NCBI RefSeq assembly: GCF_030013595.1
Contig: NZ_CP122768.1
Reading direction: 5' to 3' (one strand)
DNA: 64,000 nt
From: Escherichia coli
GTDB taxonomy: Bacteria > Pseudomonadota > Gammaproteobacteria > Enterobacterales > Enterobacteriaceae
A program made the position numbers and the translations under genes. This document shows, piece after piece, positions 39,232 to 51,524 of this stretch; the first letter of the stretch is position 1; each line of letters begins with the position of its first letter. Below the pieces are notes generated by a model. That model was not told where the DNA came from and ran no database searches. It saw only the letters and a program-made list of their open reading frames with translations.

Positions 39232-40280
39232 GGTTTTTATTGGGCGTGCTGATGCTGATGATCTCCGGCTCAGCGCTGGCGACCATCGACGTGTTGCAGT
39301 TTAAGGATGAAGCGCAGGAGCAGCAGTTCCGCCAACTCACTGAAGAACTGCGCTGCCCGAAATGCCAGAACAACAGCATTGCCGATTCCAACTCGATGAT
39401 TGCCACCGACCTGCGCCAGAAAGTGTACGAACTGATGCAGGAAGGTAAAAGTAAGAAAGAGATTGTCGATTATATGGTGGCGCGTTACGGCAACTTCGTC
39501 ACTTACGATCCGCCGTTAACGCCGCTGACCGTGCTGCTGTGGGTACTTCCGGTAGTGGCTATTGGCATTGGCGGTTGGGTCATTTACGCCCGTTCGCGGC
39601 GTCGGGTACGCGTGGTGCCGGACGTGTTTCCTGAACAAAGCGTGCCGGAAGGCAAGCGTGCCGGATATGTTGTTTATCTGCCGGGTATTGTGGTGGCGTT
39701 AATTGTGGCTGGCGTCAGCTACTACCAGACGGGCAATTATCAGCAGGTGAAAATCTGGCAGCGGGCCACGGCACAGGCTCCGGCGTTACTGGACAGGGCG
39801 CTGGATCCGAAAGCCGATCCGCTCAACGAAGAAGAGATGTCGCGCCTGGCGCTGGGGATGCGTACTCAACTGCAAAAAAATCCGGGAGATATAGAAGGCT
39901 GGATTATGTTGGGCCGCGTTGGCCTGGCGCTGGGTAACGCCAGTATCGCCACCGATGCATACGCTACTGCGTATCGCCTCGATCCGAAAAACAGCGATGC
40001 TGCACTGGGATACGCTGAAGCGTTGACACGTTCATCTGATCCCAACGACAACCGCCTCGGCGGTGAACTGCTACGTCAGCTGGTGAGAACGGATCATAGT
40101 AATATCCGTGTGTTAAGCATGTATGCGTTTAATGCCTTTGAGCAGCAGCGATTTGGCGAAGCCGTTGCCGCGTGGGAGATGATGTTGAAACTCTTACCTG
40201 CCAACGATACTCGCCGTGCGGTGATTGAACGTAGTATCGCGCAGGCGATGCAACATTTGTCGCCGCAGGAGAGTAAATAA
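39228..40280 (+). CDS. ccmH: cytochrome c maturation protein CcmH (fused CcmH/CcmI type)
   Basis: 350 aa with an LRCPKC motif, transmembrane helices and a TPR-like C-terminal half. Confidence 0.95.
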   Translation: MRFLLGVLMLMISGSALATIDVLQFKDEAQEQQFRQLTEELRCPKCQNNSIADSNSMIATDLRQKVYELMQEGKSKKEIVDYMVARYGNFVTYDPPLTPLTVLLWVLPVVAIGIGGWVIYARSRRRVRVVPDVFPEQSVPEGKRAGYVVYLPGIVVALIVAGVSYYQTGNYQQVKIWQRATAQAPALLDRALDPKADPLNEEEMSRLALGMRTQLQKNPGDIEGWIMLGRVGLALGNASIATDAYATAYRLDPKNSDAALGYAEALTRSSDPNDNRLGGELLRQLVRTDHSNIRVLSMYAFNAFEQQRFGEAVAAWEMMLKLLPANDTRRAVIERSIAQAMQHLSPQESK

Positions 40281-40286
40281 TAAGAG

Positions 40287-40316
40287 GCCCGATGGTGATG
40301 CCATCGGGCTATTTTT
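40287..40316. terminator. bidirectional hairpin terminator between ccmH and narP
   Basis: A GCCCGATGG-tgatg-CCATCGGGC hairpin followed by ATTTTTATT lies in the convergent gap. Confidence 0.7.
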
Positions 40317-40962
40317 ATTGTGCCCCGCGTTGTTGCAGGAACAGAATGGTGGCCGCCACGCGTGAGCGGACATTGAGTTTACGCAGCAGATTGCGAATGT
40401 GTACTTTTACTGTCTGCTCGGAAATATTCAACACCGAGGCAATCTGTTTATTTGACAGCCCCTGTGCCAGCTCGTGCAGAACATCCAGCTCGCGCTCCGT
40501 CAGCACGCTGAAGGGATCTTCTTCTGCTCCAAACATTTCACGTTCACGTAAGTACTGATTGACGCGTTCGCTAAAGACTTTGCTGCCTTTCGCTCCGGCA
40601 CGAATCGCTTCCAGCAACACTTCCGGGTCGCTATCTTTCAACAGATAACCGTCTGCGCCTGCGTCTATCAGCGCAAAGACATCGCTGGAGGCATCTGATA
40701 CGGTCAGGATAATAATTTGCGCGGTAACGCCATCCCTGCGCAAGGCATTGAGGGTATCCAGGCCACTCATACCTTTCATATTGAGATCCAGCAAGATCAC
40801 GTCGATATCCAGTCTATTCGCCAGATCGATCGCGCTCGCGCCGTCGCCCGCTTCGGCGACCACTTCAAAGCCAGGATCAAGCTCCAGTAACTGACGAACA
40901 CCGCGTCGCATAAGTGGATGATCATCCACAATCATCACCTGAAAAGGCGTTGCTTCAGGCAT
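40315..40962 (-). CDS. narP: nitrate/nitrite response regulator NarP
   Basis: 215 aa counted from MPEATPFQVMIVDDHP, an internal Met of the 225-aa ORF. It has a receiver domain plus a LuxR HTH. Confidence 0.95.
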   Translation of the reverse strand: MPEATPFQVMIVDDHPLMRRGVRQLLELDPGFEVVAEAGDGASAIDLANRLDIDVILLDLNMKGMSGLDTLNALRRDGVTAQIIILTVSDASSDVFALIDAGADGYLLKDSDPEVLLEAIRAGAKGSKVFSERVNQYLREREMFGAEEDPFSVLTERELDVLHELAQGLSNKQIASVLNISEQTVKVHIRNLLRKLNVRSRVAATILFLQQRGAQ

Positions 40963-41281
40963 AGTAGTCTCCTGAGGTTTTATTAGAATCATTATGTTTG
41001 AGCGTAGCGTTGGTAACGCTACCAGGCGCGTGAATGTTACCCCATTTTATGTATGGACATGTAGCGAAAACTACAACCTTGTCGTTCGCTTTGGCATCAC
41101 TTTCATTATAAAGACGGAATTTTGCATCAGCTTCTCATCAAGAAAAACAACTAAAAAATCAATCACAATACTTGTGCATTTCTTTAAACAGTTTTTAAAA
41201 ACTGACTCCGGGTATGGAGCTATGGGTATTTTCTCTACCCAATGCTTTTAACAGCAATTAATTTCATAGGATGAAAGCTCA

Positions 41282-43873
41282 ATGCATCAATCTGGTTCTG
41301 TTTCTCTTTGTCGTTCCGCAATATCTGTTCTGGTGGCTACAGCGTTATATTCACCCATAGCATTGGCATCAACAGTTGAGTATGGTGAGACAGTTGATGG
41401 TGTTGTCCTGGAAAAAGATATCCAGCTGGTTTATGGGACCGCCAATAATACGAAAATCAATCCTGGCGGAGAACAGCATATAAAAGAATTTGGTGTAAGT
41501 AGTAATACTGAAATTAACGGAGGGTATCAGTACATTGAAATGAATGGCACCGCAGAATACTCAGTATTAAATGACGGTTATCAAATTGTTCAAATGGGTG
41601 GCGCGGCAAACCAGACTACCCTCAATAATGGTGTGCTACAGGTTTATGGCGCAGCGAATGATACTACCATTAAAGGCGGGCGCTTAATTATTGAAAAAGA
41701 TGGGATTACCGTCTTTGCCGCTATCGAAAAGGGAGGATTACTGGAGGTTAAAGAGGGGGGATTAGCATTTGCGGTAGATCAGAAAGCAGGCGGTGCGATT
41801 AAAACAACCACGCGGGCCATGGAGGTATTCGGAACAAACCGTCTCGGTCAGTTCGATATCAAGGATGGTATTGCTAATAATATGCTGTTGGAAAACGGCG
41901 GAAGTTTGCGAGTTGAAGAAAATGACTTCGCTTATAATACCACTGTGGATAGTGGCGGCTTACTGGAGGTTATGGATGGCGGGACTGCAACTGGCGTTGA
42001 TAAAAAAGCAGGCGGAAAATTAATTGTCTCAACGAATGCGCTGGAAGTGAGTGGTACAAACAGTAAAGGCCAATTTAGTATAAAAGATGGTGTGTCAAAA
42101 AATTATGAACTGGATGATGGTTCCGGGCTCATTGTTATGGAGGACACGCAGGCCATTGATACTATCCTTGATGAGCATGCCACTATGCAATCGCTGGGAA
42201 AGGATACTGGTACGAGAGTGCAGGCAAATGCGGTATATGATCTCGGTCGATCAGATCAGAATGGAAGTATCACGTATTCCTCTAAAGCCATCTCTGAAAA
42301 TATGGTTATCAACAATGGCCGCGCTAATGTCTGGGCTGGCACAATGGTTAACGTTTCAGTCAGAGGGAATGATGGCATTCTTGAGGTCATGAAGCCGCAA
42401 ATAAATTATGCACCCGCTATGTTGGTGGGTAAGGTAGTGGTTTCTGAGGGCGCTTCTTTTAGAACGCATGGTGCCGTGGATACCAGCAAAGCGGATGTTT
42501 CGCTCGAAAATAGCGCATGGACCATCATTGCCGATATCACTACGACGAACCAAAACACTCGCCTCAACTTAGCCAACCTTGCGATGTCTGGCGCAAATGT
42601 GATTATGATGGCTGAGCCAGTGACTCGTTCATCTGTGACGGCAAGTGCGGAAAATTTCACTACGTTGACCACCAATACCCTATCGGGAAACGGCAATTTT
42701 TATATGCGTACTGATATGGCTAATCATCAGAGCGATCAGCTCAACGTGACCGGTCAGGCAACAGGTGATTTCAAAATATTTGTGACGGACACAGGGGCCA
42801 GCCCGGCAGCAGGTGATAGCCTTACACTGGTAACAACGGGCGGCGGTGATGCTGCATTTACGTTGGGCAATGCCGGAGGCGTTGTTGATATCGGTACGTA
42901 TGAATATACCTTGCTGGATAATGGCAACCATAGCTGGAGTCTGGCAGAGAATCGCGCGCAAATTACCCCTTCAACCACTGATGTGCTGAATATGGCGGCA
43001 GCACAACCGCTGGTATTTGATGCAGAACTGGACACCGTGCGTGAGCGTCTTGGTAGCGTAAAAGGCGTTAGTTACGATACGGCGATGTGGAGTTCGGCAA
43101 TTAACACCCGCAACAACGTGACCACTGATGCGGGAGCTGGCTTTGAGCAAACATTGACGGGCCTGACGCTCGGTATCGATAGCCGTTTCTCCCGTGAAGA
43201 AAGCAGTACAATTCGCGGCTTGTTCTTTGGTTACTCTCATTCTGATATTGGTTTTGATCGCGGCGGCAAAGGCAATGTCGATAGCTATACCCTGGGGGCT
43301 TATGCCGGTTGGGAGCATCAGAACGGTGCCTATGTTGATGGGGTGGTGAAAGTTGACCGTTTTGCCAACACCATCCATGGCAAGATGAGTAATGGGGCAA
43401 CAGCGTTTGGCGATTACAATAGTAACGGCGCGGGTGCTCATGTCGAGAGCGGGTTCCGTTGGGTTGACGGATTGTGGAGTGTTAGACCTTATCTGGCCTT
43501 TACCGGCTTTACCACAGATGGTCAGGACTACACGTTATCAAACGGCATGCGTGCGGATGTGGGAAATACCCACATATTACGCGCTGAAGCGGGAACGGCG
43601 GTAAGCTATCACATGGACCTGCAAAACGGTACGACGCTGGAACCCTGGCTGAAAGCCGCCGTACGTCAGGAATACGCCGATTCTAACCAGGTGAAAGTTA
43701 ATGACGATGGCAAATTTAATAATGATGTGGCTGGAACCCGTGGCGTTTATCAGGCTGGGATAAGGTCATCGTTTACCCCGACGTTAAGCGGTCATTTGTC
43801 TGTCAGCTATGGCAATGGCGCAGGGGTAGAATCACCGTGGAATACTCAGGCGGGTGTGGTCTGGTCGTTCTGA
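41282..43873 (+). CDS. yejO: AIDA-type autotransporter adhesin-like protein YejO (uninterrupted)
   Basis: 863 aa with a signal-like N-terminus, Gly/Asn-rich beta-helix repeats and a C-terminal beta-barrel ending ...GVVWSF. Its position next to narP and proL supports the call. Confidence 0.85.
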   Translation: MHQSGSVSLCRSAISVLVATALYSPIALASTVEYGETVDGVVLEKDIQLVYGTANNTKINPGGEQHIKEFGVSSNTEINGGYQYIEMNGTAEYSVLNDGYQIVQMGGAANQTTLNNGVLQVYGAANDTTIKGGRLIIEKDGITVFAAIEKGGLLEVKEGGLAFAVDQKAGGAIKTTTRAMEVFGTNRLGQFDIKDGIANNMLLENGGSLRVEENDFAYNTTVDSGGLLEVMDGGTATGVDKKAGGKLIVSTNALEVSGTNSKGQFSIKDGVSKNYELDDGSGLIVMEDTQAIDTILDEHATMQSLGKDTGTRVQANAVYDLGRSDQNGSITYSSKAISENMVINNGRANVWAGTMVNVSVRGNDGILEVMKPQINYAPAMLVGKVVVSEGASFRTHGAVDTSKADVSLENSAWTIIADITTTNQNTRLNLANLAMSGANVIMMAEPVTRSSVTASAENFTTLTTNTLSGNGNFYMRTDMANHQSDQLNVTGQATGDFKIFVTDTGASPAAGDSLTLVTTGGGDAAFTLGNAGGVVDIGTYEYTLLDNGNHSWSLAENRAQITPSTTDVLNMAAAQPLVFDAELDTVRERLGSVKGVSYDTAMWSSAINTRNNVTTDAGAGFEQTLTGLTLGIDSRFSREESSTIRGLFFGYSHSDIGFDRGGKGNVDSYTLGAYAGWEHQNGAYVDGVVKVDRFANTIHGKMSNGATAFGDYNSNGAGAHVESGFRWVDGLWSVRPYLAFTGFTTDGQDYTLSNGMRADVGNTHILRAEAGTAVSYHMDLQNGTTLEPWLKAAVRQEYADSNQVKVNDDGKFNNDVAGTRGVYQAGIRSSFTPTLSGHLSVSYGNGAGVESPWNTQAGVVWSF

Positions 43874-43933
43874 TAACAGACAATAAACAGGCCGTGATGT
43901 GTCGCGGTCTGTTTATCGAATTAAATGCAGATA

Positions 43934-43966
43934 TAAAAAAACCAACCTTTACGGTTGGTTTTTTTG
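43934..43966 (-). terminator. hairpin terminator, probably the ancestral proL terminator now separated from proL by the island
   Basis: AAAAAAACCAACC-tttac-GGTTGGTTTTTTT sits immediately outside the distal island junction. Read on the minus strand it is a canonical stem followed by a T-run. Confidence 0.6.
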
Positions 43967-43972
43967 GGATTT

Positions 43973-43995
43973 TTGGTCACGAGAGTATTCAAAAC
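43973..43995. repeat. distal att remnant (degenerate copy of the proL 3' end)
   Basis: TTGGTC---ACGAGAGTATTCAAAAC here compares with TTGGTCGGCACGAGAGGATTTGAACC at 54171-54196. GATTT(TT)GGTC is shared at both junctions. Confidence 0.6.
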
Positions 43996-44046
43996 ACGCC
44001 AATAACCTCTTGATTCAATTGAAGTCGAAAATTTTAAGTCAAAAAT

Positions 44047-44072
44047 CGTATAGCTTAACGTGTAGCTAAAAA
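44047..44072. repeat. 26-nt direct repeat (candidate integrase arm-type site), distal copy
   Basis: CGTATAGCTTAACGTGTAGCTAAAAA differs by 1 nt from CGTATAGCTAAACGTGTAGCTAAAAA at 54028-54053. Confidence 0.6.
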
Positions 44073-44622
44073 TGTTTGCTGCAAAAGTATACAATTTTAA
44101 CCGTTATGACTCCCTGTTATCCGTTATCAAGCTGGTGGATGATCATGGATAACCCGTTATGGGAATCCCCATATCGGCATCAGGCCCATGCCATAACAAA
44201 AACCCCATATTCGTGGGTTTTCTGTGTTGTGGCTATTCTGCCGTTGCCGTGCTGGTGGATATTTCCGGTATGTGGCTCACCATATCGGCATCACGCCCAC
44301 CAGCGCGACGCATTTTTTTAATTTCGCGGGTGTAAAAATTTGACGGGGCGGGCGGTCCTATAAGCAATGGGGGGTAGGGATTTCGATCCCCCCTCCTGAA
44401 TGCAATTTTCCGTATGTGGCTGTGCGGCAATCATACTCGTCACATGTTTTTGACAATAAAAGGCCCGACCGTGAGACTCACAAACAAAAAAGTTACGGAG
44501 AAACAGGGGATCGGGCTCGGTTGCCGCTAAATCTATTCAATTAAAAGAAGATGTCAATAGGGAAAACGAAAAAAAACAATGCTGATATTGTCATAATTTG
44601 AACAAAACCACTATATGTAGTT

Positions 44623-44853
44623 TTAGTTCATGAGGTTAGTCGCTACCAGATGCGTCAATAGTTTTTTGCTATTAATAATCCCTCTTTTTCCATCGGGAGC
44701 TTTGCACTTGTCACTACCTGGTAACTCCTGGTGGCGTTCCTGTTGCAGCACAACGGAAACAGGCGCTGAACACCTGTTAATTTTGCTTGCAGGTTGTTTG
44801 ATTTCGGCAATGCTGCGGATCATCTCCAGCATATCGGCTTCGGTGATGGTCAT
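44623..44853 (-). CDS. hypothetical small protein (76 aa)
   Basis: The ORF is preceded by an AAGGTG Shine-Dalgarno 6 nt from the ATG. I recognise no family, and it lies in an otherwise ORF-poor region. Confidence 0.35.
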   Translation of the reverse strand: MTITEADMLEMIRSIAEIKQPASKINRCSAPVSVVLQQERHQELPGSDKCKAPDGKRGIINSKKLLTHLVATNLMN

Positions 44854-44884
44854 GATTTACACCTTAGGAAATCTTAGGGGCTGG

Positions 44885-45142
44885 TTGACACTTTCCGGCT
44901 TAAGACCTTAACAAATCTTAACATCGCAGGTTGACACACTTGACACTTTTTCGCGAAAAACCTTATCAAACCTTAGCATTTCTAAGCATGGCAACTTGAC
45001 ACTTTTCGCGATTTTTTCGGCTTTTTGACGTGGTAAATCTGGCGCAAAGCCAGTAACGGCGGGGTTTACAGCGAGGTTGACACTTTTTCGCGTTCAGAGT
45101 GTAAAGTGTCAACCTGGCAAGCTGCTCAACTTGACACTTTTT
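44885..45142. repeat. iteron array TTGACACTTT(TT)CGCG (at least 6 direct copies plus 1 inverted)
   Basis: Copies start at 44885, 44931, 44940, 44996, 45077 and 45131, with one inverted copy at 45103-45112. They are interspersed with CCTTA(G/A/T) repeats and lie between the Nu1-like gene and the 76-aa ORF. Confidence 0.8.
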
Positions 45143-45146
45143 GAGG

Positions 45147-45674
45147 TCATTGATGGCCTGATTTTTCCCACTCAGCCAGGGCGTTTAGTCCGGCTTCACT
45201 CCAGTTATCCAGCTCATCGGGACAATCACCTGCAACATAGCAGAGCTCACAACGCAGCATACGAATTGCCAGCCTGGCATTTTCCCGAAAATCATACTGC
45301 TCAAAGTAATATTGCCCAGCATAATCCTCAAGGCAGATAGCACCATCATCAAGAAATTGCACTTCACAGCATAGTTCCCCGGCTGCATCCTGTACACGCT
45401 GCTGTATGTCATTGTCCGTTACTGGTGCAGGGATTTTACCGTCTCTGGCCTTAACTGCTTTCCAGAACTCGCCCCACGTCATTTCCAGCGTTCTCTCTGG
45501 CCACATTTCAGAAACGGTATCTTTTCCCTGTGCTGGTGGGCTGTTCCGCTGCTCTGTCGCTTCCACATCGATTTTTTTACCGGACATGACCACTTCGCCT
45601 TTCTCGATCCAGTCGTAAACTGTCTGGCGGCTTACGCCTTTGTGTTTGGCATATTCTGCCTTGCTCATAAACAT
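45147..45674 (-). CDS. protein with a lambda Nu1 (small terminase)-like N-terminal HTH; candidate packaging-specificity factor
   Basis: 175 aa. The N-terminus SKAEYAKHKGVSRQTVYDWIEKGEV resembles lambda Nu1 NKKQLADIFGASIRTIQNWQEQGMPV. The rest is unrecognised and Cys-rich. A good Shine-Dalgarno (GAGGGGAAG) precedes the start. Confidence 0.55.
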   Translation of the reverse strand: MFMSKAEYAKHKGVSRQTVYDWIEKGEVVMSGKKIDVEATEQRNSPPAQGKDTVSEMWPERTLEMTWGEFWKAVKARDGKIPAPVTDNDIQQRVQDAAGELCCEVQFLDDGAICLEDYAGQYYFEQYDFRENARLAIRMLRCELCYVAGDCPDELDNWSEAGLNALAEWEKSGHQ

Positions 45675-45844
45675 GACACTTCCCCTCAGACTGTATTAAT
45701 GCGCCGGAAAGCGCGTGTATTTAAATCATCCCAGGAACCGTTGAGCACCAATTAGTTGCGCGAAGTAATCGGCACCAGCGTTCCGAACAATTTCCAACTT
45801 AACGTTCTGATCATTGTTTCCTGCTGCAGGGACAATCCCACGAT

Positions 45845-46498
45845 TCATAGCCAGCGCCCGGATATTTCTTCCAGTTTTTCCAGAGCTGGCTTGCAGGCCG
45901 CATCAATAACTTCACGGACCATTCCGGCGAGCTGTTCTTCTTCTGTCGGCGTTGTTACTTCCACACCTGATGGTTTCCCGCCCTTATCCCATACGCCCAA
46001 CGGTACGAGCGCAACGTGATCGATAAGAAATGGCGTACCCTCAATGAAAAAATTGTCCTCGCCCATTACATCAGGAACTTCTGCCCCACCGGACGCACCA
46101 CAAAACACAACCGACGGGCTGGTGGATACCTCCCCCCGTGCTTTCTGGATGTAATCGATGATTTCCTGCCCGTAAATCCGGCATACGCCCCACACCTCGT
46201 CACCGCGAATATACGGCAACATGACGGTGCCAATAATGCGCGACCGTTCGCCCACGTCTTCAAGGGTTTTGCTTTCGGGATGGTCGATAATGACGGGTAC
46301 TCCGGCGCAACGTTCCAGGAACTGCGGATTGAGATAAGTTTGCGGTGAACGCCAGACAAATTCTTTTTCTTCGGCGCGATAGGCCATTCCGGTTCCTGTG
46401 ATACGCAGGTTAATCAGCCACATGTTGGAAAACTGATAAGGCGACGGTAGCTGACCGTCCCGAATCTGCTTTGCCGCCTCAATTTCTGTTAAAAGCAT
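45845..46498 (-). CDS. DUF2213-like protein (phage scaffold/prohead-protease-like family)
   Basis: 217 aa. The motifs GVPVIIDHPES, IGTV and IDHVALVPLGVWDKGG follow the pattern I remember for DUF2213. This has not been verified by HMM. Confidence 0.5.
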   Translation of the reverse strand: MLLTEIEAAKQIRDGQLPSPYQFSNMWLINLRITGTGMAYRAEEKEFVWRSPQTYLNPQFLERCAGVPVIIDHPESKTLEDVGERSRIIGTVMLPYIRGDEVWGVCRIYGQEIIDYIQKARGEVSTSPSVVFCGASGGAEVPDVMGEDNFFIEGTPFLIDHVALVPLGVWDKGGKPSGVEVTTPTEEEQLAGMVREVIDAACKPALEKLEEISGRWL

Positions 46499-46562
46499 AA
46501 TGTCCCCCGGTTATAAGCAATAAGCCCCACCAAATCCGGCAGGGCTGAAATCAGCACGTTTT

Positions 46563-47147
46563 TCATGCCCCCGCGAGGCTTGCAACGTTAATTTTAACCA
46601 GGCGACGGGGAGGGATTTTGAAAGCACTAAGCCAGTTATTCGGATCCCCCTGATATTCAGTAATCCGCCGTCCGGCTTCATCCATTCTTACGGTTTTACG
46701 CAAATAGCCCGGCGTATTTTCCACAGCCCACTGAACACTGTCTTTTGCAGCCTGGTAAATCTGATCTTCCAGCACCGCCAGCGTTGCAGAATCTGAAACG
46801 GAACGAATATCCACATCACTGAATTTTTTAGCCAGCTTCTGTGCACCAATTAATGCACGCTTGCGGTAATCCATCGACTTTTCACCAGCAAACGGGGCTG
46901 GAGCGCGACGGCCCATATTGCTGTATGCGGAATCCGCTTTAGCCTGGGCTTCTGCCAGTGAGGATTCATCTTCGACTGACGCGACGATGTTTTTATTCGC
47001 GTCATCCTCGTCCGCTTTTGTGAAATCCTGTGCGGGGATCGCATTCAGAATTTCGATAATCTCCTGCGGAGTGCTGCCCTGCGACTCTGACAGAGCGTTA
47101 ACCACCTCCATCAGTTTTAATCGCAAATCTTCTTTGCTTGCTGGCAT
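46563..47147 (-). CDS. hypothetical protein (194 aa) with an acidic N-terminal half
   Basis: The ORF has a GAGAGG Shine-Dalgarno before the ATG at 47147; the ORF track begins 9 nt earlier at a GTG. I recognise no family. It lies immediately upstream of the DUF2213-like gene. Confidence 0.5.
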   Translation of the reverse strand: MPASKEDLRLKLMEVVNALSESQGSTPQEIIEILNAIPAQDFTKADEDDANKNIVASVEDESSLAEAQAKADSAYSNMGRRAPAPFAGEKSMDYRKRALIGAQKLAKKFSDVDIRSVSDSATLAVLEDQIYQAAKDSVQWAVENTPGYLRKTVRMDEAGRRITEYQGDPNNWLSAFKIPPRRLVKINVASLAGA

Positions 47148-47186
47148 TTTTACCACCTCTCTTTTTTCACCAAAAAATCACGACCA

Positions 47187-47360
47187 TCAGGCCGGACGTT
47201 CTACGGGATAAAGCGCCCGCTGCATTAAACGCCGGGCGACCTCATGAATGCTCGGAGCAATCCCCAGCGGAGAATTGCGGCGTTCCTCGTCCTGGATGCG
47301 CTGTAATGCTTCAATCTGATCACGAGCGAGTAAAACGGGTTTCACGCTGGCTTTTCTCAT
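47187..47360 (-). CDS. hypothetical small protein (57 aa)
   Basis: An AGGAG Shine-Dalgarno lies 8 nt before the ATG at 47360; alternative ATGs are at 47366 and 47384. It is the first ORF after the tandem terminators. Confidence 0.45.
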   Translation of the reverse strand: MRKASVKPVLLARDQIEALQRIQDEERRNSPLGIAPSIHEVARRLMQRALYPVERPA

Positions 47361-47486
47361 AGTCATATCTCCTGAACAAAACAATGATTATGATTGCACA
47401 AACTGAAATAACGATCTACATCATTGCAATTTATGAAACAATAACGCATGATGATCGCGTTCTTCCCATTGACTTCAATCACCTGA

Positions 47487-47525
47487 AAAACAAAGCCCGC
47501 AACACTTCTGGCTGCGGGTTTTTTA
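47487..47525. terminator. hairpin with T-runs on both strands
   Basis: A CCCGCA-N11-TGCGGG hairpin is followed by TTTTTT on the plus strand and by TTTGTTTTT on the minus strand. Confidence 0.55.
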
Positions 47526-47531
47526 CTGGCA

Positions 47532-47557
47532 CAAAAAAGCCGGGAAAAATCCCGGCC
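47532..47557 (-). terminator. rho-independent terminator after the PerC-like gene
   Basis: The minus strand reads GCCGGGA-tttt-TCCCGGC followed by TTTTTT, 5 nt after the stop codon. Confidence 0.75.
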
Positions 47558-47561
47558 TCCG

Positions 47562-47849
47562 TCACTGACTGCAATTTTTCGATCCAGGGTATTTCCTGAA
47601 TGCCTTACCATTGGGCTGATGTAATCCCATCCCGGCATGTGCCCGGCTGATGGTTTCGCGCATTTCCCCGAAATTATCCTGCCTTGCTGGTGGGCGTGCT
47701 GCCTTGCGGATACATTCCGCGCGACGTTTTGCCGCCTGTTCCCGTGCCTTGTCATCATTCGCCAGCATGATGACCTCAGCCCACCGCGCCGCCGCTCTCC
47801 GGTACAGACCACGCGCTTCCAGTGCTTCCGCTTTGCTGTCGTGAATCAT
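47562..47849 (-). CDS. PerC/Pch-like transcriptional regulator
   Basis: 95 aa. The N-terminal AEALEARGLYRRAAARWAEV matches the PerC-family signature as I recall it. Its start overlaps the upstream gene's stop by 4 nt. Confidence 0.55.
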   Translation of the reverse strand: MIHDSKAEALEARGLYRRAAARWAEVIMLANDDKAREQAAKRRAECIRKAARPPARQDNFGEMRETISRAHAGMGLHQPNGKAFRKYPGSKNCSQ

Positions 47850-48388
47850 GCGCCTGTTTTCTCCTTTGCTGCCCGGCGCTGACGTTTGCGCTTCTCATTC
47901 AGCGCCACCAGCCGCGTTTCTGCGTCCTGTTGTTCCTGTGGTGTCACCTCGCCGCACGGCTGGCCTTTCAGGTCGTAGCGTACCCCACCAGCCATTAAGG
48001 CGCGGTAATAGCGCGGACACTGCGCATAAGATGCCAGCGTCGCACGCAATGCCCCTGGACCGAATGCCAGCCCCCTGACGGCGAGATCCTGCATCAGGTC
48101 GTCGAATATCCCCACCTTAAGCGGCTTCGGTGCTTCCCGGCTGAATAATTCAGGCCACAACTCAGTGAGGCGGTTAACGCGCCTGCGGTTTTTGCGCTGG
48201 CGTTTGGTCATATGCCGCCACGGTGTCGCCCCTGTGGGCTTCTGCTGCGCTTTCTGGTTACCGGGCATCACTTTATGCGCCGATGTGGTTTTATCCTGCT
48301 CCTGCGCCGCCTGCGTCGTTTTCTGCGGCGTGCCGTAAATGCCTTTCGGTTTTCTGTTAATGGTCAGCTTAGTCATGCTTTGCCCCAT
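47846..48388 (-). CDS. FinO/ProQ-domain RNA-binding protein
   Basis: 180 aa. KPLKVGIFDDL ... LRATLASYAQCPRYYRAL..GGVRYDLKGQPCGEV aligns with E. coli ProQ RPLKIGIFQDL ... [35 protein letters not shown]. Both the N- and C-terminal tails are basic. Confidence 0.8.
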   Translation of the reverse strand: MGQSMTKLTINRKPKGIYGTPQKTTQAAQEQDKTTSAHKVMPGNQKAQQKPTGATPWRHMTKRQRKNRRRVNRLTELWPELFSREAPKPLKVGIFDDLMQDLAVRGLAFGPGALRATLASYAQCPRYYRALMAGGVRYDLKGQPCGEVTPQEQQDAETRLVALNEKRKRQRRAAKEKTGA

Positions 48389-48537
48389 CGTTTTTACTGG
48401 TTGCTACGTTGCCCAACGGCACTGACACAACATTCTGTTTTCATTTTTAACATTCCTGATTTTTTAATTCCTCACCTGCTGCACAGTGAAAATTTATGAA
48501 GTTAATAACAATATGATTTTAAATGTATTTTTAAGTA

Positions 48538-48856
48538 CTCACTTTTTAATCCTTATATATACGCAAAAGTGAGGTAAATAGTTAAGTTTTAGTTAATATC
48601 TTGCATGGTGTGTTTTTTAACCTACCTGTTATTTTTATTACCTCATTTCTATTAACTCACCATTCCTCACTTTTGTTCCTCACTTTTTATTATTCTTGTT
48701 CTGCTCCTCAGTCGTTTTCTTTATTGTTGTAATCTGTTGTTTTGCAATGTGTTTTTAACTCCTCACTTTTTGACCTATATACAGGTGAGAAAGTGAGGAG
48801 TGGCGTTGATTTTTTGTTAAATTACCCGCCATCCTCACTTTTGCTCCTCACTTTTT
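48538..48856. repeat. iteron array CCTCACTTTT(T) in AT-rich DNA: candidate island replication origin
   Basis: Direct copies lie at 48538, 48665, 48678, 48761, 48833 and 48846. Inverted copies lie at 48565-48574 and 48789-48800, and there are degenerate copies as well. The array is immediately downstream of the helicase gene. Confidence 0.75.
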
Positions 48857-50270
48857 ACAGTGGGCGCACATAATCACCGTCAATAGCGATTACGCCGTCG
48901 CTTTCCAGCTTGTACAGCCAGCGCCGGAAGTGTTTCATCTCATACCCCAGCTTTTTCATATCATCGCGGAGAAGGGCGATAGTGCACGCCTCCCCGTGTG
49001 CTGTTCGCGTTCTGATGCACTGCCATAGCGCAGCGTGATTTTCCGTCTTGTTCCCGGCCTCCTCGATGCGTTCCAGTTCAACAGGTGGGCGCGGCTTATC
49101 CACAACCACCAGCGACGTGATTAACTCCCCGTCAGTGTCGGTAAAAAGCTCCACCACGCGTAAATCATATGCAGCCTCTTTCAGTTCCTCCGCGTCCTTC
49201 ATTTTGGTGCAGGAGATAACCAGGGCTTCACTGTCCGCACCTTCACGGCGAATACGGTATTCAGCGTCCAGAGATGCACGAAATGCACTGGAACCACGCG
49301 CCCCTTTTGTTTCATCCTTGCCGGAATGGTGAACCACCAGTACCGTGGCCCCTGTGCGTCGTTTCAGTTCGTCACATCCACGGATAAACGCCCCCATATC
49401 CCGCGCGTCATTTTCATCATTACCGCCAAAGCAACGCGCCAGCGTATCCAGAATAATCATGCGTACCGGTTTACCCGTTTCCCGTTCAACCTGACGGGAA
49501 GCGATGACCATTTCATCAACATCAAGCGGGACCGCCGGAAAAATCGGGCGGTTTACCAGGTACAGATTTTTCACCCGTTCATCATTAACGATTTCCCATG
49601 CTTTGATACGACGAGGAACACCGATCCCGCCCTCACCAACGACATACATAACCGCACCATGTACAACCCTGCGACCTCCCCAGTGGCGACCAGTGGCAAC
49701 ATGACACGCCCAGGAACACGCGAGGAACGATTTATAGGAACCGCTCGCGCCGTATGTGCTGCACAACGAATTAGCCGGAATCACGCCCTTAACGACATAA
49801 TCAAGCTGTGTGTCGTATCCTGCAGATCCAATACTCATTGGTAGCGTGGTTTTTCGCTGGCTGTATTGCTCGTCAGTAAGTATTTCCCCGCGCTCTGCCT
49901 GTTCGCGGATCCGTTGCAGGTAGTCGTGCCAGTTCTCCAGCTTCTGGCTGTGCATTCCCTCAGGGTAATAATTCGCATCCCGTACACCTGCCGCCGCCAG
50001 TTTTTGCCCGATGGCATTAATATTTGACGGCTTGATGTGGCCTGCCTTGTACAGCCGGACACAATAGCGACCATCGTCGATAATTTTCAGGTCTGCCAGT
50101 TCGTCAAGCTGGCTGTCTCCCAGCCATACAGGCGGAACATTGTCGCCAGCAAGTCGCCCGTCCTGTTCCTGCCATTGTTTCGCGTGCGCCCAGGCATCAC
50201 TACCCGCAAAAATAATGACTTCGGTCATTTTGTCGTGTGGCTGTTTTTTTAAGTTCGGTGCCAGTTTCAT
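48855..50270 (-). CDS. RepA/AAA_25-type replicative helicase-like initiator
   Basis: 471 aa with a RecA-fold core: Walker A-like GASGSYKS, Walker B MIILD and an HHSGK motif. The C-terminus is wHTH-like. It is translationally coupled to the upstream ORF. Confidence 0.7.
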   Translation of the reverse strand: MKLAPNLKKQPHDKMTEVIIFAGSDAWAHAKQWQEQDGRLAGDNVPPVWLGDSQLDELADLKIIDDGRYCVRLYKAGHIKPSNINAIGQKLAAAGVRDANYYPEGMHSQKLENWHDYLQRIREQAERGEILTDEQYSQRKTTLPMSIGSAGYDTQLDYVVKGVIPANSLCSTYGASGSYKSFLACSWACHVATGRHWGGRRVVHGAVMYVVGEGGIGVPRRIKAWEIVNDERVKNLYLVNRPIFPAVPLDVDEMVIASRQVERETGKPVRMIILDTLARCFGGNDENDARDMGAFIRGCDELKRRTGATVLVVHHSGKDETKGARGSSAFRASLDAEYRIRREGADSEALVISCTKMKDAEELKEAAYDLRVVELFTDTDGELITSLVVVDKPRPPVELERIEEAGNKTENHAALWQCIRTRTAHGEACTIALLRDDMKKLGYEMKHFRRWLYKLESDGVIAIDGDYVRPL

Positions 50271-50566
50271 TTTGTGCCCCTGAATGCGTTAATCATGTTT
50301 TTCATTTTCTGAATATTTGCCCGTGCCTTTGCGTTGCTGGTGGGCTGTTTGCGTGGTGTGGCCTGTATCAGTGAAAAATCACGCCGGAACTGATAAACAG
50401 GCATCACGCAGTCGTAGCTGTACCCATCACGGCGGTAAGTAACGCACCGTCCGGCAATACTTTTAATCGTTACCGTGCCGCCGTAGTTATCCCGGAAAAT
50501 ATCGCCGGGGCGGATTTCAGGCCGAGGGAGACCACTGGCAGTAAAGCCAGAATTTTTCTTTTTCAT
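50267..50566 (-). CDS. hypothetical protein (99 aa)
   Basis: The ORF overlaps the rep start by 4 nt. I could not confidently recognise a family. Confidence 0.5.
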   Translation of the reverse strand: MKKKNSGFTASGLPRPEIRPGDIFRDNYGGTVTIKSIAGRCVTYRRDGYSYDCVMPVYQFRRDFSLIQATPRKQPTSNAKARANIQKMKNMINAFRGTK

Positions 50567-50570
50567 GGTT

Positions 50571-50771
50571 TTATTTTCCTGTCAGCAGTTCCGGTTTTAT
50601 TTCCGCACGAATACAGAGTTCAGAAAAAAATTCAGGAGAACCAACAATCTCATTACTTTTCAGTCGGCATTGTGATTTCACTTTCCCTTTATCCAGGTAA
50701 ACCAGTATGCGTCCGGTGAAATCATCTGGCACACTCAGGGTAATTGTCATTGTTGCTTGCTGATTATCCAT
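50571..50771 (-). CDS. hypothetical protein carrying one copy of the FTG(R/Q) module (66 aa)
   Basis: It shares the pattern FTGRILVYLDKGKV...VGSPEFFSEL with both halves of the upstream 121-aa protein. Confidence 0.5.
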   Translation of the reverse strand: MDNQQATMTITLSVPDDFTGRILVYLDKGKVKSQCRLKSNEIVGSPEFFSELCIRAEIKPELLTGK

Positions 50772-51129
50772 GATTCACCCCCTGAATAACCTGATAACCG
50801 CAACTGGTCAGCAATTCGATAAATTCCGGCAGTGTTCCGAAACAGCAATCATCTCGCAGCCGTTCTCGGGATACTTCAACGCCGTTTTCGTAGTGACTCA
50901 CCATGCGTCCGGTAAAATGCAGATCATCATCGTGATGGCTCGTTAACGGCTTAATCAGTCGCGCACGTTCTGCCAGCTCCAGCAATGCTTCAACGCTTCC
51001 GGCAATTGCACCATCCGGCAGGTGATAATTACTTGCCACGCGTCCATTCTCCACGTTAACCAGTAGCTGCCCGGTGAATTTCTCATCAAACTGAATGCTG
51101 TTAAGGTCAGAAATTGACAGGTTAATCAT
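50764..51129 (-). CDS. hypothetical protein carrying two tandem copies of the FTG(R/Q) module (121 aa)
   Basis: Internal duplication: FTGQLLVNVENGRV...AGSVEALLEL and FTGRMVSHYENGVEV...FGTLPEFIEL. It overlaps both neighbouring genes by 8 nt. Confidence 0.55.
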   Translation of the reverse strand: MINLSISDLNSIQFDEKFTGQLLVNVENGRVASNYHLPDGAIAGSVEALLELAERARLIKPLTSHHDDDLHFTGRMVSHYENGVEVSRERLRDDCCFGTLPEFIELLTSCGYQVIQGVNHG

Positions 51130-51325
51130 GGCGTACCTCCTGGCGAATACGGGCAGCGAATACCATCACGCAGCCATCAGGAGATTGCTGACGCGCTTCC
51201 TGTTCGCTGGTGGCCTCAATGGTAATCACGCGCGGTTGTGCCGTGCTCAGGGCGATAAAACGCCAGATGTATTTATTCAGGTTGTGCGAGTCCCGCCCTT
51301 GCGGGTGTGTGGTATGATTTCTCAT
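51122..51325 (-). CDS. Icd-like small protein (67 aa)
   Basis: This is the 3' third of the 286-aa ORF-track entry, starting at MRNHTTHPQGRDSH. The segment YIWRFIALS...IEATSEQEARQQSP.GCVMVFAARIRQE resembles proteins annotated as host cell division inhibitor Icd-like in satellite islands. That match is from memory only. Confidence 0.5.
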   Translation of the reverse strand: MRNHTTHPQGRDSHNLNKYIWRFIALSTAQPRVITIEATSEQEARQQSPDGCVMVFAARIRQEVRHD

Positions 51326-51422
51326 AGCTACCTCGATACTCTTTCTATCGTTGGTGGTTAGAAGCCCCGTTACTGCTCCAACAGTGCGGGGTTTCGTCGT
51401 TTCTGTGCCTTGCATTAACAAG

Positions 51423-51504
51423 GTGTAAGACACAATGTAAAATACAAGTGTCTTACACGTCAAGCCTTCAAAATAATTTTTTTTCGTGTATATTGTCTTA
51501 CACC
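51423..51504. promoter_or_regulatory. operator-like repeats in the divergent control region
   Basis: GTGTAAGACAC (51423-51433) and its exact inverted copy GTGTCTTACAC (51448-51458) are joined by a third copy, GTCTTACACC (51495-51504). They lie between the Icd-like operon and the plus-strand RHH-like gene. Confidence 0.6.
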
Positions 51505-51524
51505 AACAACATAAGGAGTTAGAC

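Follow-up and report, generated by a model that had tools for sequence, protein, structure and literature searches.

What role could the 545 nt of noncoding DNA play that separate the last ORF of an integrated E. coli island from its left attachment (att) repeat? Within the 64-kb stretch of DNA analysed here (the window), this segment (44076–44620) begins 4 nt past the att repeat, and a first-pass annotation had described it as ORF-poor and internally duplicated, reading it either as the packaging site of a phage satellite or as a locus for structured RNA. The lack of genes agrees with the RefSeq annotation of the identical ETEC6335 island, which has zero genes in this stretch. In the E. coli collection, no record covered at least 80% of the 981-nt stretch 43880–44860. 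We consider it very likely that the region is the packaging end of a phage-inducible chromosomal island (PICI) of ~10 kb, in which a core at 44313–44415 represents a cos site of the phiP27/phi1026b family and is preceded by a left module bearing Chi sites.

Borders, gene content and setting of the island

The window contains the nap-ccm-narP-yejO block of E. coli, with the autotransporter gene yejO at 41282–43873, and at the opposite border of the island tRNA-Pro(GGG) (54172–54248) is followed by yejM (54323–56083). The DNA inserted between yejO and tRNA-Pro(GGG) is delimited by a left att direct repeat, CGTATAGCTTAACGTGTAGCTAAAAA (44047–44072), which is identical at 25/26 positions to a right att repeat (54028–54053) that adjoins the integrase gene and lies ~120 nt from tRNA-Pro(GGG). 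The att-to-att distance, and hence the size of the island, is ~10.0 kb.

All genes of the island lie on the minus strand. Full-length ORFs encode a tyrosine integrase (52721–53962), AlpA (51987–52193; PF05930) and a RepA-type helicase (48855–50270); further ORFs have family matches to Icd-like/repressor-like, DUF4222, ProQ/FinO and PerC proteins, while a 197-aa protein and a DUF2213 protein jointly match one PHROG of unknown function. The last ORF of the operon (44623–44853) encodes 76 aa and has no family match. It is followed by the noncoding tail of the operon (44416–44622, minus strand), which is shared with island L017 from 44404 on (94.7%), and in which a hairpin (44463–44516) and then a U-run (44452–44462, minus strand) plausibly form the operon terminator; a simple terminator scan did not pick up this hairpin.

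For classification we used the definition of Fillol-Salom 2018 (integrase at one end, att repeats, AlpA, a replication module and a size of ~10–15 kb), together with the absence of phage-family matches among the ORFs scanned. The island displays the gene layout of Gram-negative PICIs and, judged by this layout, is a Gram-negative PICI. When its ORFs were scanned against PHROGs and Pfam, matches of a structural type were limited to two families, one of head maturation proteases and one of small terminases, and tblastn with the small terminase, large terminase and HNH protein of P27 detected no terminase or HNH gene in the 64-kb window. The island also differs from capsid-forming PICIs (cf-PICIs) in having none of the genes for capsid, portal, protease, HNH, small terminase and large terminase with which these elements are equipped. 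Because it has no terminase, HNH or capsid genes of its own, the island would have to borrow its packaging proteins.

The cos core and its phage and satellite relatives

Using blastn, the sole E. coli match obtained in the phage collection was the 'cos-site' region of the Stx2e phage phiP27, to which window positions 44315–44396 are 85.7% identical, including a perfect run of 44 nt that reads TTTTTAATTTCGCGGGTGTAAAAATTTGACGGGGCGGGCGGTCC in the pairwise alignment. The G-rich segment ACGGGGCGGGCGGTCCT, flagged in the first-pass annotation as a possible packaging site, is present at 44343–44359, one base off the position given there, and contains the 10-nt cohesive-end sequence of phiP27, which bears out the suggestion that the satellite carries a cos of its own at the island end. 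This predicted cosN sequence, GGGGCGGGCG (44345–44354, plus strand), is identical to the annotated 'cos-site' of phiP27 (NC_003356). On the side of the small terminase it is preceded by a flank (44313–44344, plus strand) made up of an A/T run and the 22-nt sequence TTCGCGGGTGTAAAAATTTGAC (44323–44344); the latter is identical to phiP27 at 22/22 positions, and the flank as a whole matches phiP27 at 30/32 and cf-PICI L040 at 32/32 positions. The HNH side (44355–44415, plus strand) comprises a GT after the overhang, AGGGATTT (44376–44383) and the C-rich box CCCCCCTCC (44388–44396); in an alignment of 25 sites, the GT, GGATT and C-rich box fall in columns that are invariant or nearly so. The extension beyond this box, CTGAATGCAATTTTCCGTAT (44397–44415, plus strand), is specific to satellites, being matched at 16–18 of 19 positions in other satellites and at 2/19 in phiP27. 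By sequence, the small-terminase flank, the 10-nt sequence and the HNH-side elements of a P27-family cos are all present.

A more permissive search matched positions 1–30 of the phi1026b and phiE125 records to the window flank. Both records start at the physical genome end, and the circularised phi1026b junction (...TTTTTAATTTCGCGGGCGTGAAAATTTGAC, GAAGCGGGCG and GTCCC..., in this order) aligns with the window base by base and puts the last 10 nt of the phi1026b record at 44345–44354; the island cos is therefore found at the same position as the phi1026b physical end. The small terminases of phiP27 and phi1026b are 55% identical and both belong to PF05119 (Terminase_4), and the gene order HNH, cos, small terminase, large terminase is common to the two phages, whereas the island cos has neither an HNH nor a small-terminase gene nearby. 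A literature search on the cohesive ends of phiP27 found nothing specific.

Phages of the P27 family package their DNA by means of a Terminase_4 small terminase, a large terminase and an HNH nuclease. A 3' polarity of the overhang is reportedly described in papers on phiE125 and phi1026b and, also by analogy with HK97, may apply to the P27 family. HK97, of the systems studied the closest one, is an HNH-dependent cos phage with a 10-nt 3' overhang, and its small terminase binds a 15-bp site located at +15 to +29 from the cut (PMC11331095). Transferred to the window, the offset of this minimal site gives positions 44316–44330 as a candidate small-terminase site; the placement is a purely positional one, since the small terminases of phiP27 and HK97 show no detectable relationship. 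The candidate site falls inside the perfectly conserved block.

Conservation of the core extends well beyond E. coli. In a scan of one genome per bacterial species, a degenerate form of the 22-mer was found at 16 loci in alpha-, beta- and gamma-proteobacteria, and the 5 loci checked (Comamonas, Halomonas, Pseudaeromonas, Modicisalibacter and Castellaniella) display the order HNH, motif, Terminase_4 small terminase, large terminase. Outside the search pattern, 25 diverse cos sites have in common the upstream A/T run, a GT after 10 variable bases, GGATT and, ~35–50 nt away, a C-run; the window keeps every one of these family-conserved elements, and all family-invariant positions are intact. The G6...C6 hairpin reported earlier at 44369–44393 is present. 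Its C-run is conserved in the family and its G-run varies in the relatives without compensation, so that the hairpin can be regarded as the family C-rich box with a G-run pairing by chance in this copy.

Within E. coli, the cos core is present in 333 of 5426 complete genomes. It is located at the ends of distinct islands, inserted at yejO, clpS, dinD, smrA and yifB sites, and in many distinct, intact-looking islands it is positioned between the operon end and att. IMG/VR contigs with a matching terminal sequence encode a capsid, an S78 protease, a portal, a connector, an HNH protein, a Terminase_4 small terminase and a large terminase, and are therefore cf-PICIs; one 10.0-kb unit of the present island corresponds to ~65–85% of the lengths of the cf-PICI contigs found here (11.8–15.5 kb). 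Cohesive cos ends have been reported for cf-PICI DNA (bioRxiv 10.1101/2025.02.11.637232). An O157:H7 element at dinD that we had considered as a cf-PICI prototype was rejected, as it represents another PICI-like island.

A comparison of successive segments of the window gave matches at 19/20, 32/32, 8/10, 17/21, 21/21 and 18/19 positions with cf-PICI L040, and at 4/20, 30/32, 10/10, 9/21, 13/21 and 2/19 positions with phiP27. The window cos thus represents a satellite subtype of the P27-family cos, the extended flanks of which match cf-PICIs and not phiP27. With phiP27 it shares the identical 22-nt flank and 10-nt sequence as well as the GT, the GGATT and the C-rich box, but it differs in the flanks beyond the core (the values of 4/20 and 2/19 given above). 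No phage record in the collection has a satellite-type right flank. The HNH, cos, small-terminase module of P27-family prophages is complete in 18 E. coli genomes and represented by parts in 924, and some genomes carry both a P27-family prophage and a satellite-type cos. A point against reading too much into conservation is that the high similarity between satellite ends could stem from recent exchange and not from constraint.

The left terminal module and its Chi sites

The repeats described in the first-pass annotation are real, and all of them lie at, or within one base of, the positions assigned to them. The decamer GCTGGTGGAT occurs at 44131 and 44251, and CCATATCGGCATCA(G/C)GCCCA at 44169 and 44280, with a spacing of 111–120 nt between copies. 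They do not, however, make up a simple tandem duplication: the repeats belong to two variant units (44097–44188 and 44241–44307) that are parted by a 52-nt spacer. A further repeat, TTTCCG(G)TATGTGGCT, is found at 44261–44277 and 44405–44421 (15/17 match), and the copy on the right is not conserved in relatives, where the sequence is TTTTTCGTATATATA.

Unit A (44097–44188, plus strand) matches the module of cf-PICI L006, present there as a single copy, with 90% identity. It comprises CCGTTAT direct repeats (44101, 44121 and 44154) and a CCATATCGGCATCAGGCCCA block, a 14-nt inverted repeat (44116–44129 and 44140–44153) surrounds its Chi site, and it is kept in satellites with different att sequences. 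The spacer (44189–44240), with a small hairpin and a T-run at 44204–44217, recurs between the units of IHE3034. Unit B (44241–44307, plus strand) contains a Chi site at 44251–44258 (plus strand), a CCATATCGGCATCACGCCCA block and a second Chi site, CCACCAGC, at 44297–44304 (minus strand). Spacer and unit B together (44178–44308) match many other genomes independently, for example IHE3034 and ST648; in IHE3034 they are preceded by a degenerate unit A.

Conservation of the repeats among related islands, put forward as a check on the earlier reading, is found: the module is kept at the ends of many islands. A single unit is present in L006 and L035, other inserts in L003 and L040, and the same pair in IHE3034. 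AAGCTGGTGGAT is conserved in 12/14 related ends and GCCCACCAGCG in all cos-bearing relatives, and the order TTAAyCGTTATC...CTATCCGTTATCAAGCTGGTGGAT, variable insert and GCCCACCAGCG just before the cos flank is universal in the related ends. Parts of the module are present in 727 genomes, among them in islands that carry other packaging genes and lack a P27-type cos. Overall, we regard the left 240 nt as a general terminal module of E. coli satellites that is not specific to this type of cos, and the two units look like the recombination product of two module variants. Recombination promoted by Chi would account for the mosaic breakpoints (~44308 and ~44415) and for the chimeric halves of the cos in L037. 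The CCGTTAT heptamer occurs three times within 60 nt, vs nine times in the remaining 64 kb; together with the 14-nt inverted repeat, these heptamers may serve as sites of AlpA, an excisionase, IHF or a protein accessory to packaging.

Could the left module instead be a packaging element private to the island? In such a scenario, 44097–44307 would act, by analogy with cosB and Rpp of EcCICFT073, as the island's own cosB, in which the CCGTTAT repeats and the 14-nt inverted repeat form an array of binding sites for a redirecting protein encoded by the island, for example the 175-aa protein encoded at 45147–45674 (minus strand). The N-terminal part of this protein is a winged helix-turn-helix that belongs to the Xis / small-terminase / Rpp fold class, and its C-terminal domain is unmatched; its gene occupies the same position as Rpp in EcCICFT073, and homologues adjoin the P27-type cos in L019 and L023. 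Although compatible with a packaging end that carries a P27-family cos, an own cosB is unlikely. The module also ends islands with other packaging modules that lack a P27-type cos (L015, L034, L036 and L049), so that it is not a cosB specific to the P27-type cos, and a tie between the module and the 175-aa protein was rejected, as cf-PICIs without any homologue carry the module too. The 175-aa protein itself shows no sequence similarity to RppC, no PDB sequence match, no similarity to the P27 small terminase and no tblastn match in 50,697 phage records, and a role as Rpp or small terminase was discarded on the basis of the empty PDB, P27 small-terminase and phage-record comparisons; no Rpp homologue was found encoded next to the cos. 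The Rpp heterodimer mechanism, moreover, does not transfer, because the P27 small terminase is not of the Nu1-type helix-turn-helix class. Finally, the repeats lie 30–100 nt from the att core and could therefore be excisionase (AlpA) or IHF sites. The DUF1441 protein of L003, tried as an RppC homologue, was likewise rejected, as it had no PDB match.

Two points were absent from the earlier reading, namely that the duplication corresponds to a generic satellite terminal module, and that the repeated decamer contains the Chi octamer. RecBCD arriving from a DNA end must meet the 3' side of the Chi octamer. The exact octamer GCTGGTGG is found in this RecBCD-active orientation, on the plus strand, at 44131 (44131–44138) and 44251, that is 206 and 86 nt from the predicted cos cut and facing the cos end at 44344. 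The third Chi, inverted and located at 44297 on the minus strand, is the complement of GCTGGTGG; it has no obvious protective role, and the inverted repeat formed by GCTGGTGG and CCACCAGC could serve another function. Facing the other cos end, the first Chi lies 3.5 kb into the island.

Three Chi octamers within 268 nt have a Poisson P of ~3e-5 at E. coli density, and in the whole island there are 14 in 10 kb, where the average density of E. coli would predict ~2.2 (P = 8e-8). None of 1000 Markov simulations reached 14 Chi. Chi density is ~5-fold above the E. coli average, and in related satellites it amounts to 0.9–1.2 per kb. Kobayashi and Stahl reportedly worked on the interplay of Chi and cos in lambda. 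As in lambda and Chi-rich lambdoid phages (PMC8791490), the Chi octamers of the island are oriented towards a cos-generated end and Chi density is high; the island is distinguished by having its Chi sites within a terminal module that is conserved and includes an inverted Chi partner. No RecBCD inhibitor encoded by the island was detected here, and the Chi-bearing module suggests how satellites without such an inhibitor may protect linear DNA. A literature search on Chi in satellites and PICIs found nothing specific.

Other readings of the region and the proposed packaging route

The island has no terminase and satellite ends are mosaic, with the breakpoints and the chimeric L037 halves described above, as might be expected if the cos-like sequence were an inert relic of a decayed P27-like prophage or cf-PICI through which the island is no longer mobilised. 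Such a relic is very unlikely given that all family-invariant positions are intact, that many distinct islands of intact appearance have the site at the same place between the end of the operon and att, and that the att repeats agree at 25/26 positions and none of the ORFs for integrase, AlpA and helicase is shortened.

The proposal that the repeats and the hairpin are elements of one or more structured noncoding RNAs fared poorly and is, in our view, highly improbable. It is in keeping with the scarcity of ORFs, with DNA/RNA folds that are slightly stabler than shuffles (z = -2.6, -2.2 and -1.3; 44095–44420 and 44400–44620) and with one promoter-like site on the minus strand (44557–44530), but these z-scores are weak, the promoter count is below shuffle expectation, and Rfam 15 gave no match in 44076–44620 even at E up to 1. 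The G6/C6 hairpin lacks covariation, its G arm varying uncompensated while the C-run is kept, and the conserved core is shared with phages, whose known cut site it forms between the genes for HNH and the small terminase. A weak Rfam match to OrzO-P at 43893–43965, obtained when scanning 40000–50000, corresponds to the yejO terminator hairpin and was discarded.

A cos of the lambda/phi80/N15 type (12-nt 5' overhang, cosQ-cosN-cosB), which would point to lambdoid helpers with a Nu1-type small terminase, is practically untenable: the noted likeness to lambda is correct in that ACGGGGCGG and AATTTTCCG both occur in the lambda cos, and described E. coli PICIs do use a lambda-like cosN (PMC6092414, PMC6739421), but the best local alignment to the circularised lambda cos is the 9-mer ACGGGGCGG with a score of 18, which is at chance level (shuffles 18.2, sd 2.2) and contrasts with a score of 100 against phiP27, there is no GGGCGGCGACCT-like 12-mer (<=2 mismatches) within 1.5 kb of the module, nor a lambda-like cosN close to any of the related modules, and the segment is identical to the phiP27 cos.

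Reading the region as the packaging end of a PICI with a P27-family cos, we propose the following route. Excision at the att repeats and replication would come first, after which a borrowed terminase would bind the conserved flank (44316–44344) and cut around GGGGCGGGCG (44345–44354). Packaging would then proceed leftward, crossing the terminal module and the att junction, and continue around the island until the next cos is reached. Chi sites facing the cos end would keep RecBCD from degrading linear DNA, whether cos-cut or injected, and promote recombination. The terminase, HNH protein and capsid may be supplied by a P27-family prophage or by a co-resident cf-PICI. Since the cos module matches the cf-PICI subtype, and the flank at 44397–44415 is found only in satellites, it is possible, if rather unlikely, that this terminase-less and capsid-less PICI is a satellite of a satellite, which would use the terminase and small capsids of a co-resident cf-PICI and not those of a helper phage.

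Several known systems resemble the island in part. The closest are cf-PICIs (EcCIEDL933 family; bioRxiv 10.1101/2022.09.08.507074), which have a nearly identical cos, satellite flanks and the Chi module, with the cos between the late-operon end and att as in this island; most of them differ, apart from the packaging genes noted above, by a single terminal unit and by GCGGGTTA repeats right of the cos, which are absent here. EcCICFT073 (PMC6092414, PMC6739421) has an integrase, AlpA and a replication module, needs a helper terminase, and carries its cos at the island end after the gene of a small DNA-binding protein; however, its cosN and cosQ are of the lambda/phi80 type, whereas the present site is of the HNH/P27 type, and its private cosB is read by a heterodimer of Rpp and small terminase, whereas the flank found here on the small-terminase side is the phage's own. 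HK97 is insensitive to Rpp (PMC6092414, PMC6739421). According to the account of cos SaPIs given in one of these papers (Quiles-Puchalt 2014, via PMC6092414), SaPIbov5-type islands of Staphylococcus aureus are likewise terminase-less and use the HNH-dependent cos of their helper; they are Gram-positive, and the likeness is one of description, the sequences being called unrelated. The classical E. coli PICIs described so far are mobilised by way of lambda/phi80-type cos sites together with Rpp, and a literature search turned up no account of an E. coli PICI that lacks a terminase and has a P27-type cos. Satellites with a helper-type cos are thus a known kind, and the present combination appears undescribed.

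Taken together, the island and a recurrent lineage of similar islands in porcine ETEC/STEC and other strains carry an HNH-dependent cos of the P27 type, and the 22-nt flank offers a handy probe for such cos sites across Proteobacteria. The presence of a P27-type cos in PICIs would widen the range of phages or satellites able to spread these islands, and the P27 family includes an Stx2e-converting phage. With a cos module common to islands with and without capsid and terminase genes, a hierarchy of phage, capsid-forming satellite and minimal satellite becomes testable.

Late genes and Chi content of the island

The 175-aa protein encoded on the minus strand at 45147-45674 belongs to an uncharacterised Enterobacterales family, which we found to be a recurrent late gene in phage-inducible chromosomal islands (PICIs). 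Its N-terminal part is predicted by modelling to adopt a winged helix of the Xis/small-terminase/Rpp class, and the C-terminal alpha/beta domain, which was modelled confidently, returned no structural match. Two further minus-strand genes, encoding a DUF2213 protein (45845-46498) and the following 197-aa protein (46563-47156), match the N-terminal/middle and the C-terminal parts, respectively, of one and the same PHROG (phrog_6216, 545 residues), which is annotated as function unknown and shows weak similarity to head maturation proteases. The pair may represent a split or two-gene capsid-remodelling module.

Across the island (44052-54055), 14 Chi octamers in 10 kb were counted on both strands (44131, 44251, 44297, 45532, 46118, 47686, 47905, 47985, 49106, 50336, 51206, 51706, 52401 and 52793), corresponding to approximately 5-6 times the E. 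coli average. Related satellites carry 0.9-1.2 Chi per kb, and no description of high Chi density in PICIs was found in the literature searched.

Outside the island, a weak Rfam match to the OrzO-P antitoxin RNA at 43893-43965 (27.9 bits, E 0.41) is almost certainly due to chance, as its score lies far under the gathering score and its position coincides with the yejO terminator hairpin.

Terminal module and cos-proximal repeats in other islands

The Chi-bearing terminal module lying between att and cos is also used by other terminase-less or partly equipped islands. Among these, the island on the clpS side in E. coli Rb-3 (L003) encodes a ClpP-protease/major-capsid fusion together with DUF1441, and the IHE3034 island (L049) encodes a small terminase, a major capsid protein and a head decoration protein, and carries three copies of GAAAATATCAACGGGTTAGGC at the expected cos position.

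In most satellites, cos is followed directly on its right by three copies of GCGGGTTA and then by three to four inverted TAACCCGC repeats (L003, 6100-6290; the related locus L006, 450-640; other capsid-forming PICI ends), an arrangement whose sequence looks like iterons or another protein-binding array. In contrast to these capsid-forming PICI ends, the window lacks the array, and its island continues with a different module from 44416 on.

Composition of the cos sites

A direct repeat matching at 15 of 17 positions is found on both sides of the cos core, at 44261-44277 (ATTTCCGGTATGTGGCT) and 44405-44421 (ATTTTCCGTATGTGGCT). It is unlikely to have arisen by chance, is not conserved in relatives, and may have been left behind by recombination where the modules meet, near 44404-44415.

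In the related locus L037 (IMG/VR UViG_3300003337_000019), a candidate chimeric cos lies approximately 350-420 nt past the terminal module.

This L037 site combines an unrelated left flank with a satellite-type right half (GGCGGGCGGTCCCATAAGCAATGGGGCGTAGGGATTTCGATCCCCCC), and that of the related locus L019 joins a phiP27-type right flank to a satellite-type left flank. Both sites look like chimeras, and their composition suggests recombination at or near cosN.
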